Assembly: GCF_050320075.1 (NCBI RefSeq)
Contig: NZ_CP190018.1
DNA length: 64,000 nucleotides
Reading direction: 5' to 3' (one strand)
DNA from: Escherichia coli
GTDB taxonomy: Bacteria; Pseudomonadota; Gammaproteobacteria; Enterobacterales; Enterobacteriaceae
The notes below the pieces were generated by a model, which was not told the DNA's origin, did no database searches, and saw only the letters and a list, made by a program, of their open reading frames with translations. This document shows positions 46,641 through 57,901 of this stretch, one piece after another. The position numbers and the translations under genes are program-made. Each line of letters opens with the position of its first letter. Position 1 is the first letter of the stretch.

Positions 46641-46663
46641 TTTGGCGGAAGATCACAGGAGTC
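46641..46663. repeat. attL: partial direct repeat of selC 3' end
   Basis: tttggcggaagatcacaggagtc is identical to the 3' end of selC as it appears on the plus strand at 57900-57922. Confidence 0.8.
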
Positions 46664-46789
46664 AAAATTGCCATATAACCATTTGATTCAAATCGTTTAT
46701 ATTTTTCTATTATAATTCATTTATACACATCCTTATACATATAATATCTATCGATTAATTTTTACACGTATCTTCACGCATGTTAACTC

Positions 46790-47100
46790 AGGAAAAAAAT
46801 TTTTTTTCGAAAGAACTGTTCACACTGTTCACCTTTCTGTTTTCTCCTTTTATTTCAGAGTGATAGGTGGTGAATAATGGGTGAAGGGTGAACATTCGAT
46901 TCTTCACCTCCGGCATTCTGCCGGTGTGACTCATACCGGTGATTAATCCCCCGAACTGAAATCACACAGGGAGAAAAAAGTTTTTTTTTGATTTGATTGT
47001 TCACACTGTTCACCTTTCATTTTTCTCTTTAAATTTCAGTGTGATAACGGGTGAATATACGGTGAAGGGTGAACAGTGGATTGTTCACCTTCGGGGAATT
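46790..47100. repeat. P4 crr-like region: two direct copies of about 120 bp, each with TGTTCACC-type iterons
   Basis: ctgttcacactgttcacc...gggtgaagggtgaaca occurs twice (about 46815-46910 and 46995-47095); octamer TGTTCACC / GGTGAACA repeated in both orientations. Confidence 0.7.
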
Positions 47101-47139
47101 CAGGGATAAAAAAAGACCGGCAGATGCCGGTCAGGTGGG

Positions 47140-53842: not shown

Positions 53843-56563
53843 TTATTTGTAATTATTTATTATCTCTTCAATCTTCAAAAGTGCTTGTGAGAAATCACTT
53901 AATTTCCGTGTGTTGACTATATAGCGTAATAAACCTCTGATTGTCTCTGCTTCTGAGTTAAATCTAAATCCTTTATAGTTTTCAACAAGCTTGGATACTT
54001 TCTCAGGAAGATTGTCATAGCTGTCTGAAATCTCTGATGCTAATAAAAATAATTCAAATTTAATCTTTCTTTCTTCATTGAAATCAGTTGTGGAAATATT
54101 TTTGATAAATGATTTTATTTTATCTCTATTCTTTTCTGTTGATATTCTGTACAGATCATATAGTATTGTTTCAGCAGCTCTTGCTTTATCTGTATTCGGA
54201 TAAGAACTAATTTCATGAAGTAATTTATCGACCTTGCTGTCGTCTTCTATATTAACGCCCAGTTTTTTGGCTACTGAAAAAATATTAGCAAGGCCTCTAT
54301 TGACTATAGCTATCACCTCATACCTACCAAGGTTTCTACTTATTAACTTATCGAGAATCGTGTATATTAAAGTTTTTATGCTGTCAGTGGATAAAGTTTC
54401 ACTGTGGGTGTTGTACCTTATAACGACATATTCGGAAATAGCATCATAGAATGCTAGGTTGTGGTATGAGGACTTTAAAGTGTCGTTTAATGTTTTTAAT
54501 ACTACCGCGTCTTGCTCTGTGGTTATTTTCATTAAAGATAGTAGTTTTAATGCGTTGATTAACTTTCCTTCTATAGGGTTGAGAAACGTAGCGAACTTGC
54601 TATATGACTTCGCTAGGTTTTGCAGTACAGTATTTATTAACCAATCTAATTCTTTGGGTTGAACAGACAGCGATAATAGTTTTTTATCTTCTTTCCTTAG
54701 TATAAGAGATAGGGTTTTATTATCAATGTATTTAATGCATGAATATAATTCTAATCTTGTTAGAGAAATCTCGTCTTTATCAGAATCCTTGATTATTTTT
54801 ATTTCAATGAATTTGCGAATCACATCCTTGAATTCTTTATAAACATCAATTAAACATCCATTTTTTACAACAAAAATTATAAGGTTTTCGAAAAGAAATT
54901 CCGTTTTATGAAGATCCCCGTCAACTAATAACTTTGTATTTCTTTTTCTTATATCGCTATACTTTGTTAATAATGAGCTAACGGTGTAGTGAAGATTTAA
55001 TAAATAATTAAAGGTTACTAAATCATAGATTACGGAGACGGTTTTTTTTATATTTCTCGGTAAGTTATCATATAATTCATGAATTTTATTCTCCTCAAGA
55101 GTTGAGTATCTTTCTCTATTAATTGAAAAATCATACTTCAATCTATTCAAAATAATATTTTGATTGAAAAGCGATATGAGAATATTTGCATAGTCCTTTT
55201 GTCTGATCTCTTCTGATAATTCCTCCTCTATAATACTGTAAGCCTCATCGTATTTATTTAACTGGAAGCAATTATATTTCTTAGTCTTGTCTATACTATT
55301 TGCAACCTTATGGGGGCGTGTATAGGTAACTATTTCGTTATAGTTGAAATTAATTTCCTTATCTATTTTAATTAATGAATCATTTGGTAGCACTTCAGTA
55401 ATCAGTAGCACTTCATCATGTTTATCGTTTAAAACAATACCATATATACTTGCTTTTTTTAATATAAAAAATAATTTTTGGAGATGCGGCTTATAGTCTT
55501 TAACTTTTTTATCATTACTGAGTATACTCAAAAACTTCTTATAAAATCCTCTTAGCTCTATATTATTATCATTAGAGGTTACTTCGGTGTCATAAAATTG
55601 CAATAAAGCTTTTGGTCCATTGTCATCAATATACATTAAACCGCAATTAGTGAAACATCTGGTAACTTGTTCAGCAAGTATTGCATTTAACGATTGAAGA
55701 GATCTCACTCTTGAATAAATAGCATTAATTATTTCGATATCATCTAAGTCTGCACATAGTTCTAGGCTATTTAGGCTATGCAGGAAAGTATATAACTTGT
55801 TTGAATATGAATTGTTATTGAAAGGTTTGATTGTTTCATCGGTTAAAATAATAGTGGTTATACCATGACTTTCAAGATATTTTCTTTGAGCAGGAATATC
55901 TTCGAATACTACTAAATACATAGGGGGTCTAACAGATGAATGATTCTGAGTCCATTTAATTATTTGCTTTAGATCTATATCATTATATGAATACCCCAAA
56001 AATAGCACAGTATGGGTGGAAATAACACTTTTAACATAATTTTCAATTAAGGGAAAATTGAAGCTATAATTTAAGTAATCATCTTCTTTAAAGACGATGT
56101 TGTGATTTTTAAAATCACCATGCATTTTTATCAATTTTTTGCCAAGGTAAGATTTCATCAAATCTTTGTCACTGCTTATTATATTATAAAAGTAAGATTT
56201 GGCATTTATAGCTGCTTCAAGCAAAGTGTCCCAATTCGTTGTGATAACAGAGTGAGGATTCAGTTTAAATATTAGATCGTGAATCTTTGAATGGGGAACA
56301 TTTTCAGGAAAGAAATCTTTGATTCTTTTGTAGTAAAGATGCTCACCAAATGTGAGGTAATAAAGCTGTGCTATTTTTAAATAATCTGATTCATCTTTGA
56401 TATTGAGATCTGAAATGAGAGTGTCAATTAAGTCCCCCCATGAAGGCATTTTGATAGTTTTTGTTTCAGAGGATTTTGAAACACCAGCCCCTACAAAAAT
56501 AGCTAAAGACTCCTCATCTTTTGCTCTTAAAATACTAGCTATATGTTTGTTTAGCAAATCCAT
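53843..56563 (-). CDS. SIR2-domain protein (906 aa; N-terminal sirtuin-like NADase domain, about 600-aa C-terminal region of unknown function); candidate single-gene antiphage defence protein (DSR-like)
   Basis: N-terminal motifs FVGAGVS, ITTNWD, KMHGD and LFLGYSYND fit the SIR2 family; no Walker A/B motifs seen in the remainder. Gene is markedly more AT-rich than the P4 backbone and occupies the cos-to-int slot where P4 has gop/beta/cII. Confidence 0.8.
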   Translation of the reverse strand: MDLLNKHIASILRAKDEESLAIFVGAGVSKSSETKTIKMPSWGDLIDTLISDLNIKDESDYLKIAQLYYLTFGEHLYYKRIKDFFPENVPHSKIHDLIFKLNPHSVITTNWDTLLEAAINAKSYFYNIISSDKDLMKSYLGKKLIKMHGDFKNHNIVFKEDDYLNYSFNFPLIENYVKSVISTHTVLFLGYSYNDIDLKQIIKWTQNHSSVRPPMYLVVFEDIPAQRKYLESHGITTIILTDETIKPFNNNSYSNKLYTFLHSLNSLELCADLDDIEIINAIYSRVRSLQSLNAILAEQVTRCFTNCGLMYIDDNGPKALLQFYDTEVTSNDNNIELRGFYKKFLSILSNDKKVKDYKPHLQKLFFILKKASIYGIVLNDKHDEVLLITEVLPNDSLIKIDKEINFNYNEIVTYTRPHKVANSIDKTKKYNCFQLNKYDEAYSIIEEELSEEIRQKDYANILISLFNQNIILNRLKYDFSINRERYSTLEENKIHELYDNLPRNIKKTVSVIYDLVTFNYLLNLHYTVSSLLTKYSDIRKRNTKLLVDGDLHKTEFLFENLIIFVVKNGCLIDVYKEFKDVIRKFIEIKIIKDSDKDEISLTRLELYSCIKYIDNKTLSLILRKEDKKLLSLSVQPKELDWLINTVLQNLAKSYSKFATFLNPIEGKLINALKLLSLMKITTEQDAVVLKTLNDTLKSSYHNLAFYDAISEYVVIRYNTHSETLSTDSIKTLIYTILDKLISRNLGRYEVIAIVNRGLANIFSVAKKLGVNIEDDSKVDKLLHEISSYPNTDKARAAETILYDLYRISTEKNRDKIKSFIKNISTTDFNEERKIKFELFLLASEISDSYDNLPEKVSKLVENYKGFRFNSEAETIRGLLRYIVNTRKLSDFSQALLKIEEIINNYK

Positions 56564-56575
56564 TGTATATACCTC

Positions 56576-57739
56576 TCAATATAATTTATCTGAATACCAT
56601 TGCATCATTTTTTTTCTATGTTCAAGATATTGAGCATGATTGTAAGTCCCTCGGATTCTGTTTTTATCAACATGTGCCAATTGTATTTCAATCCATGCGC
56701 TATCAAACCCTTGTTCGTGCAATATTGTCGACATGGTATGCCGAAAACCGTGACCTGTAGCACGGCCTTTGTAGCCAATTAACTCAATCACTTGTGAAAC
56801 ACTTTCTTTTGAGATTGGCTTGCTGCGGTTGTTCCTGCCAATAAAGATGTAAGGGTAATGGCCGGTAATAGGTTTGAGCTGTTTGAAAAGGTCAACTACC
56901 TGAGTAGATAAAGGAACAATGTGAGGTCTACGCATTTTCATACGTTCCGCTGGTATCTCCCATATACCTTTTTCGAGGTCTACTTCTTCCCACGTAGCAA
57001 AGCGCATCTCCTGCGTTCTTACACCAGTCAGCATGACTATCTTCGTAGCATTTTTGGTGATGATGCTACCGGTATACGCTTCAAGATCTCGAATAAAATG
57101 AGGCAACTCTTCAGCGGATAAAAATGGATGGTGTTTTTGCTTGGGAACGGCCAGAGCGATAGCTAAATCAGGTGCAGGATTGTACTCAGCACGGCCAGTT
57201 ATGATTGCATAGCGATAAACCTCACCGCATCTTTGACGCACCTTGCGTGTTTTCTCTAGTGCTCCACGTTTTTCGATTCGTCGTAATACTTCAAGCAGTT
57301 CTAATGGTTTGATTTCACTGATAGGACGTTTACCAATGAACGGGAAGACATCTTGCTCGAATGTCTTAATGATTTCTTCTCGATAGGCCACAGTCCAGCG
57401 GTCAGCTTTGTTGGTATGCCATTCTCGACATATTGCTTCGAAAGAATTTTCTGTTGATAGCTTTTGGGCGAGTCTTAAAGCTTTGCGTTCCTCTACCGGG
57501 TCAATGCCATTAGCAACCTGCTTACGGGCGATATCACGCTTCTCACGTGCTTCTGCGAGGCTTACTAAATCGTAGCTGCCAAATGACATTAACCGCGCTT
57601 TCCCTGCAAACCGGAAACGGAAACGCCAGCCTTTCGAGCCATCGGGATTGATAAGCAATGACAGACCTTGTCCATCGTTCAATGTGTATGGCTTGTCTTG
57701 TGGTTTTGCACGTTTGATCTGTATATCGGTGAGAGCCAT
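56576..57739 (-). CDS. int: Tyrosine integrase (P4-type)
   Basis: 387-aa ORF; C-terminal catalytic residues (HGFRHT ... RGTYNHAQY); adjacent to the tRNA gene. Confidence 0.9.
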   Translation of the reverse strand: MALTDIQIKRAKPQDKPYTLNDGQGLSLLINPDGSKGWRFRFRFAGKARLMSFGSYDLVSLAEAREKRDIARKQVANGIDPVEERKALRLAQKLSTENSFEAICREWHTNKADRWTVAYREEIIKTFEQDVFPFIGKRPISEIKPLELLEVLRRIEKRGALEKTRKVRQRCGEVYRYAIITGRAEYNPAPDLAIALAVPKQKHHPFLSAEELPHFIRDLEAYTGSIITKNATKIVMLTGVRTQEMRFATWEEVDLEKGIWEIPAERMKMRRPHIVPLSTQVVDLFKQLKPITGHYPYIFIGRNNRSKPISKESVSQVIELIGYKGRATGHGFRHTMSTILHEQGFDSAWIEIQLAHVDKNRIRGTYNHAQYLEHRKKMMQWYSDKLY

Positions 57740-57901
57740 GTGTATAACTGAAAACTACTTATAAAAAATCTATACACATTACTATACATATTTTTCGCGG
57801 ATTTAGGGAGACGATCTCGGACTGTTACGGATAAGATGATTATTCATCATATTGAATATAAAGGGTTTTATGGATCATCTCGGAACTGGCTGGATGAAGT
57901 T

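Follow-up and report, generated by a model that had tools for sequence, protein, structure and literature searches.

A probably intact P4-family satellite at selC of Escherichia coli with a DSR2-like SIR2 gene in its cargo hotspot

Phage P4 (NC_001609) is the closest described relative of the element considered here, an 11,259-bp satellite integrated at selC in a 64,000-nucleotide stretch of Escherichia coli DNA (contig NZ_CP190018.1), hereafter the window. P4-like satellites are recognised by seven hallmark components, for which a 'Type A' arrangement has been defined (Moura de Sousa & Rocha 2021, PMC8628076), and the slot between their psu and int genes is a hotspot of anti-phage systems (Rousset et al. 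2022, PMC9122126). A P4-like prophage in selC, phiR73, was described in 1991, as cited in PMC6174562, which also gives selC as the site of the LEE. DSR2 of Bacillus subtilis (PDB 8k98 and 8wy8, among others), a tetrameric anti-phage NADase, resembles the cargo of the present element in being encoded by a single gene and in having an N-terminal SIR2 domain with catalytic Asn and His residues, followed by a helical middle and C-terminal region. We read the region as an intact integrated P4-family satellite with a DSR2-like cargo gene in the defence hotspot, and put the probability of this reading at about 85%. Element type, selC site and cargo hotspot are all published and hold nothing new. What is mildly new is only the relation of the cargo to DSR2, of which it is a full-length, distant homologue without a name in PADLOC or NCBIfam.

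The features at the ends of the insertion are:

57902–57996, minus strand: intact selC (tRNA-Sec), found by ARAGORN and by Rfam RF01852 (83.8 bits)
46641–46663: distal att core, a displaced copy of the selC 3' end at the boundary far from int (exact 23-nt repeat)
57900–57922: proximal att core, overlapping the selC 3' end (exact 23-nt repeat)
56576–57739, minus strand: tyrosine integrase, 387 aa, selC-specific, adjoining selC (phrog_1; NF007246)
46722–46742, plus strand: two TATACAYAT repeats, candidate arm-type integrase sites (motif clustering)
57738–57791: three TATACAYAT repeats, candidate arm-type sites on the int side (motif clustering)

The two att cores are copies of a 23-bp direct repeat, TTTGGCGGAAGATCACAGGAGTC, which consists of the final 21 nt of selC plus two more bases and is present exactly at 46641–46663 and 57900–57922, the sole copies in the window. 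Their spacing is 11,259 bp. An intact selC and a 23-bp repeat about 11.3 kb away had been claimed in the original prediction, and both are exact; the repeat also held on realignment. The chance of a random pair of 23-mers of this kind in 64 kb is estimated at about 3e-5. An empty site was reconstructed in silico by joining 46341–46663 to 57923–58222. The reconstructed sequence occurs uninterrupted and at 100% identity in many other E. coli genomes, and at least 80% of it is matched in one place by 2,487 of 5,426 complete E. coli genomes. Since other genomes have the empty site without interruption, the 11,259 bp are a precise site-specific insertion in the 3' end of selC, and the exact recovery of that site rules out a chance repeat.

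TATACAYAT motifs cluster at both ends. Of the six matches in the window, five are no more than 130 nt from the att cores; chance would give 0.88 matches over the whole window. Arm repeats are annotated in P4 attP, and by analogy these motifs are candidate arm-type binding sites of the integrase.

Close to the satellite but outside it, a RhuM-family pseudogene fragment (46437–46565) occupies part of the interval from setC to the distal att core. The fragment is also found at empty selC sites of other genomes, and E. coli strain F11 has an intact rhuM at that position, without setC. It has the look of a scar left by an earlier island at selC.

The genes of the satellite other than the integrase and the cargo are:

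47140–49473, minus strand: alpha, primase-helicase replication protein, 777 aa, 99.4% identical to P4 alpha
49488–49808, minus strand: ORF106 (DUF5375), 100% identical to P4 ORF106
49944–50399, minus strand: ORF151, 98.7% identical to P4 ORF151
50392–50679, minus strand: epsilon, helper derepression protein, 95 aa, 98.9% identical to P4 epsilon (RefSeq 'derepression protein')
51259–51525, minus strand: ORF88, AlpA/Vis-type helix-turn-helix (HTH) excisionase or regulator, 88 aa, 98.9% identical to P4 ORF88 (phrog_2790)
52078–52812, plus strand: sid, capsid size determination scaffold, 244 aa, 98.0% identical to P4 Sid (RefSeq name)
52809–53054, plus strand: delta, Ogr/Delta zinc-finger late activator, a single unit of 81 aa (phrog_603; NF007241)
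53069–53641, plus strand: psu, polarity suppression and capsid decoration, 95.7% identical to P4 Psu (phrog_6366)

The segment 46794–53805 is 96.9–97.6% identical in DNA sequence to positions 4291–11624 of P4. The P4 architecture proposed from a few motifs is thereby extended to about 97% identity with NC_001609 from crr to cos. The GC content of this backbone is 55.6%. Alpha also matches phrog_2249 (E=4e-242) and, at cut-off, TIGR01613. Sid, delta and psu are adjacent and in P4 order at 52078–53641 on the plus strand. The predicted 777-aa primase, 88-aa AlpA/Vis protein, sid-delta-psu order, cos sequence and integrase beside the tRNA gene are all present where they had been placed.

All seven hallmark components of P4-like satellites (the integrase, psu, delta and sid, with alpA, epsilon and alpha) are present in P4 order. 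By its gene content and order, the element corresponds to a 'Type A' satellite as defined in PMC8628076. No capsid, tail or lysis genes are present in the element, and the whole 11.3 kb is accounted for by P4 genes, the integrase and the SIR2 gene. The selC islands LEE and SPI-3 occupy the same tRNA gene and have a related integrase, the best-placed O157:H7 matches in the sampled genomes having about 82% DNA identity to the int/att query. However, LEE and SPI-3 are large pathogenicity islands that lack P4 replication, capsid-remodelling or cos functions. The content of the present element is all P4, and a pathogenicity-island reading was rejected.

The cis-acting sites are:

46792–47094, plus strand: crr, two direct repeats of about 120 bp with five type-1 iterons each, collinear with annotated P4 crr (4291–4590)
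51805–51908: ori, six type-1 iterons, in count and layout as in annotated P4 ori
47107–47132, minus strand: terminator-like hairpin, GACCGGCAtctGCCGGTC, followed by a T-run on the minus strand, downstream of alpha
51628–51645, plus strand: TGT-N12-ACA dyad where P4 has the PLL late-promoter activator site, collinear with P4 position 9133
51988–52005, plus strand: Psid late-promoter dyad (TGT-N12-ACA), collinear with P4 position 9493
53806–53824, plus strand: cos cohesive end, GGCGAGGCGGGGAAAGCAC, 19 nt, identical to P4 bases 1–19

Gene order, iterons, late-promoter dyads, terminator and cos are common to P4 and the selC element. The iteron TGTTCACC/GGTGAACA is present in 12 exact copies in the window, where about two are expected by estimate, and 11 of them fall in two clusters. 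The predicted crr-like and ori-like clusters were confirmed at 46826–47089 and 51805–51908. The former holds ten copies at no more than one mismatch, distributed over a duplication with copies at 46792–46913 and 46973–47094. The counts equal those annotated for P4, with ten iterons in crr and six in ori. The hairpin downstream of alpha is at the position of the annotated t-alpha of P4. The dyad at 51628–51645 presumably functions as the PLL activator site, as in established P4 biology. The flanks of cos match cos regions of P2-like phages.

The element departs from P4 in four modules: the integrase with its att site, delta, the hexamer of the CI-RNA immunity system, and the cargo between cos and int. 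P4 has its integrase at leuX, a gop-beta-cII cargo and a 166-aa tandem delta, and the selC element differs in all of these. Identity with phage P4 itself was rejected, as Int, att site, cargo, delta and seqB hexamer all differ. Three other E. coli genomes contain a selC P4-like satellite with a backbone 96–97% identical to that of the element; these satellites are referred to as siblings.

The integrase is 35–38% identical to P4 Int and 93–96% identical to the integrases of sibling selC satellites. Sun et al. (1991) reportedly found about 40% identity between the phiR73 integrase and P4 Int, which agrees with the value for the selC-element integrase. phiR73 carries retron Ec73, composed of a reverse transcriptase and msr/msd. 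This defining retron is absent from the element, in which no RVT-domain gene is present and the cargo slot contains the SIR2 gene only. The likeness to phiR73 consists in the shared selC site and in what was described in 1991.

Delta had been predicted correctly as to family and place, and a refinement concerns its size: it has 81 aa rather than the 166 aa of P4 delta. It shares 51% and 37.5% identity with the two halves of the P4 protein, and its zinc-finger cysteines are Cys4, 7, 30 and 35. DNA homology to P4 and the sibling elements is lost at 52932–53083. The 166-aa tandem form is shared by P4 and the three siblings at selC, and the flanking sid and psu are about 97% identical. Delta is swapped separately.

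The immunity region is composed of:

50882–51200, minus strand: RNA immunity region, defined by Rfam matches and three-way complementarity
50924–51011, minus strand: CI RNA, Rfam C4 (76.2 bits)

The upstream target region of the CI RNA matches Rfam isrK (71.2 bits) and c4-a1b1 (50.8 bits); these matches and that to C4 all exceed the Rfam gathering scores. The loop hexamer of the CI RNA, seqB, is GATAAC at 50960–50965, and its exact complement, GTTATC, is present in seqA (51141–51146) and seqC (50882–50887). In P4, the same three places are occupied by TGTGAA and TTCACA instead of GATAAC and GTTATC. Among eight distinct P4-like elements there are five distinct immunity hexamers, each fully compensated at all three sites. 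Besides GATAAC, the seqB hexamers are TGTGAA in P4, TTGAAG in GYB01, GTTAGA in ST2747 and F11, and AATAAG in the Salmonella and Yersinia elements. P4 immunity is set by the pairing of seqB with seqA and seqC. Since pairing determines immunity and the seqB hexamers differ, the selC element should, by analogy, be heteroimmune to P4.

The fourth module, the cargo, is a single gene:

53843–56563, minus strand: 906-aa DSR2-like SIR2 NADase (predicted from Pfam, profile and fold), the sole gene of the hotspot

Homology to the siblings ends at 53830–53834, a few bases past cos, and returns at 56594–56595, in the last codons of int. The same slot in the siblings is occupied by a P-loop (KAP-type) NTPase, an AIPR protein, or two hypothetical genes. 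A conserved backbone with swapped cargo had been anticipated, and the comparison bears it out: siblings that are 96–97% identical carry other genes in the slot, which is filled here by one 906-aa SIR2 gene. The C-terminal tail of the integrase (56576–56594) co-varies with the cargo because the right cargo breakpoint falls inside the last int codons; SIR2-linked integrases share LEHRK.MMQWYSDK, and the others differ. In position, as a variable segment that adjoins cos and lies between psu and int, the slot is the same as the P4 psu-int hotspot (PMC9122126). The cargo protein is identical to RefSeq WP_000365012, named only 'SIR2 family protein' there, and this accession is given in Table S1A of PMC9122126 as a single-gene 'SIR2_2' system.

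The GC content of the cargo is 29.9%, as compared with 55.6% for the backbone. Its start codon is 12 nt past the int stop codon, with a GAGG ribosome-binding site 9 nt upstream of the start, and the gene is probably co-transcribed with int.

Pfam recognises only SIR2_2 in the cargo (E=1.6e-23). A sequence search of the PDB matched residues 12–295 to B. subtilis DSR2 (E=9e-38). A family profile built from 80 diverse homologues (913 positions) aligns continuously with DSR2, from positions 4–829 to DSR2 residues 24–866 (E=2e-86). The match spans the SIR2 domain, the MID and most of the CTD, and leaves the last 80 or so positions, at the extreme C terminus, uncovered. An AlphaFold2 model of the cargo has a mean pLDDT of 88 and a pTM of 0.82, and Foldseek aligns it with DSR2 chains at TM scores of 0.6–0.73 over about 1000 columns. 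The SIR2 domains share about 31% identity. N110 and H148 do not vary among the 80 homologues and are aligned with N133 and H171 of DSR2, mutation of which lowers NADase activity (PMC10981675). The profile and the predicted fold thus identify the cargo as a full-length homologue of the anti-phage NADase DSR2. DSR2 itself is a 1005-aa protein of B. subtilis, whereas the cargo has 906 aa, an enterobacterial host and a satellite location. The invariant positions of the cargo family are nearly all in the first 235 residues and the rest is variable, a pattern to be expected where a conserved effector is joined to a fast-evolving sensor.

The link to DSR2 came only from PDB sequence, profile and fold searches. 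PADLOC 2.0.0 returned only SIR2-domain matches to ThsA and PDC models, even at E<=10, NCBIfam gave no match, and PHROGs one family of unknown function. The best PADLOC matches, to ThsA models, cover cargo residues 6–210, and the RefSeq name is equally unspecific. Both would suit a housekeeping-type sirtuin, acting as a protein deacylase or regulator, or a ThsA component of Thoeris, in place of a DSR2-type sensor-effector. We regard this as very improbable. The ThsA match is confined to the SIR2 domain, and neither a SLOG domain nor a ThsB/TIR partner gene is present; a Thoeris ThsA was rejected on these grounds. The remaining 650 or so residues align with the MID and CTD of DSR2 in both profile and fold. 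DSR2, moreover, is an NADase whose acetyl-lysine channel is blocked (PMC10981675). SIR2-HerA was rejected together with Thoeris, as the one-gene slot contains no ThsB, HerA or other partner.

By analogy with DSR2, the cargo is probably anti-phage. A different use of the same protein has to be weighed, in which it serves mainly in conflicts among mobile elements, against helpers, rival satellites or plasmids, and not in broad anti-phage immunity of the host. DSR2 senses a phage tail tube protein (PMC10981675), a satellite needs a tailed helper, and genomes often hold two to five P4-like places, so that the sensor could be tuned to structural proteins of P2-like or rival phages. However, only 1 of 18 P4-hotspot systems restricted P2-like phages, and the authors reasoned that satellites avoid harming their helper (PMC9122126). 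No sequence feature identifies the trigger of the cargo. This alternative is unlikely, and defence against phages remains the preferred role. It is also possible, though we would not call it probable, that the cargo belongs to an enterobacterial satellite-borne clade of DSR2-like proteins without a name in PADLOC 2.0.0 or NCBIfam, whose sensor may recognise a coliphage protein other than an SPR-type tail tube.

Several points weigh against reading the region as an intact satellite with a DSR2-like defence gene. Overall identity of the cargo to the characterised B. subtilis DSR2 is only about 18%, and PADLOC 2.0.0 and NCBIfam recognise it as no named system. No convincing cargo-specific promoter is present, promoter-like sites being no commoner than in shuffled sequence. 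No published assay of the cargo protein was found, nor a paper that mentions WP_000365012. The SIR2 system of the P4 hotspot that was cloned by Rousset et al. (pFR88, E. coli M605) is a different protein, and 11 of the 18 cloned P4-hotspot systems gave no protection against the authors' phage panel (PMC9122126). Finally, there is no P2-like helper within the 64-kb window.

The last point also bears on whether the satellite is domesticated or cryptic, no longer mobile and kept only for a useful defence gene. P4-like elements are often without a resident helper, as is this one in the window, and decay does occur: among 31 genomes that carry the whole element, two copies (strains LS45 and EC21Z-014) have an insertion of ISEc12, of the IS21 family. 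On the other side, every P4 gene and cis site is intact and 96–100% identical to functional P4, and the size of 11,259 bp fits the P4 packaging size of 11,624 bp. Moreover, the same element is present at 98–100% identity in those 31 genomes, from strains of chicken, human, dog, pangolin and water origin with SMS-3-5 among them, and the empty site is matched over at least 80% by 2,487 genomes. Domestication is accordingly a minor alternative, slightly less improbable than a role confined to mobile-element conflict, and an intact satellite is favoured.

The 31 genomes belong to a larger group. The left selC/P4 junction (46500–46960) is covered to at least 80% in 402 of the 5,426 complete genomes, and the SIR2 cargo is present in 31 of these 402, always at 99–100% identity. 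Occupancy of selC by a satellite had been considered notable in the original prediction; given this frequency and the description of phiR73 at selC in 1991, it is not. Many genomes contain two to five separate P4-like places. The exact cargo protein is found on at least 646 contigs of public assemblies.

Relatives of the cargo occur in other genera. In Salmonella enterica, a P4-like satellite beside yicJ/yicI has an 82%-identical cargo gene next to a 95%-identical integrase, and the index lists more than 5,000 collection blocks of this species for the homologous cargo gene. A P4-like element of Yersinia intermedia has a 76%-identical SIR2 gene beside an 82%-identical integrase, but its alpha is only 59% identical. 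Because SIR2 and integrase are conserved more strongly than alpha between E. coli and Yersinia, the comparison suggests that the integrase and the defence gene travel together between P4-like backbones.

Two further observations concern the Salmonella selC satellites with SIR2. A gene for a reverse transcriptase joined to a TIR domain is located just past alpha in three loci (L007, 18345–19952; L008, 15004–16611; L009, 18321–19952), and may provide the element with a further defence gene, at its other end. The L008 satellite has lost sid, delta, psu, alpA and neighbouring early genes, and has kept int, SIR2 and alpha.

A life cycle can be proposed for the element because of its near-identity to P4; its present-day mobility is inferred, as are the expression, NADase activity and trigger of the cargo. 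Quiescence would be maintained by the processed CI RNA, whose seqB loop would pair with seqA and seqC of the early transcript and stop expression of the replication genes. In the presence of a P2-like helper, epsilon would derepress the element, and delta and the helper Ogr would switch on the late promoters. Alpha would replicate the element from ori and crr. Sid and Psu would remodel helper capsids to the small size, into which the 11.3-kb genome would be packaged from cos. In a new host, the integrase would recombine the 23-bp core with the 3' end of selC, and the ORF88 protein (Vis/AlpA) would aid excision. The cargo, with its N-terminal SIR2 NADase and helical sensor, would be inactive until a phage protein binds the sensor. 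Once triggered, it would hydrolyse NAD+ and the infection would abort. In this manner, the cargo may protect not only the host population but also the satellite resident in it against unrelated phages.

The locus illustrates, with textbook quality, the assembly of P4-type satellites from modules that can be exchanged, namely integrase/att, delta, immunity RNA and cargo. Flagging the DSR2-like gene is useful for the annotation of this genome and for the choice of defence genes to assay.

Outside the satellite, the window contains core genes, an ETT2-linked cluster, a toxin-antitoxin pair and IS1. Gene names in the ETT2 cluster and of the toxins are taken from the annotation of a matching genome. 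A 3.3-kb islet of low GC content (about 34%) is located at 8560–11830, between ilvN and uhpA and next to IS1. Its two open reading frames, of 431 aa (8752–10047) and 489 aa (10323–11792), have no significant Pfam, NCBIfam or PADLOC match, and the islet is present in 1,110 of the 5,426 E. coli genomes, mostly at 90–95% identity. The ETT2-associated cluster (about 24020–42160) comprises the inverse autotransporter gene iatC, a gene for an Ig-like protein, eilA, and genes for type III translocon and needle-tip proteins and a chaperone. Long tandem repeats are present within iatC, and it is there that the window and the closest genome differ by a length change of 46 nt. A RelE/ParE toxin and an HTH antitoxin are encoded at about 21740–22400, between yicN and nepI, and the type I toxin gene tisB is located near emrD, at about 5660–5750.

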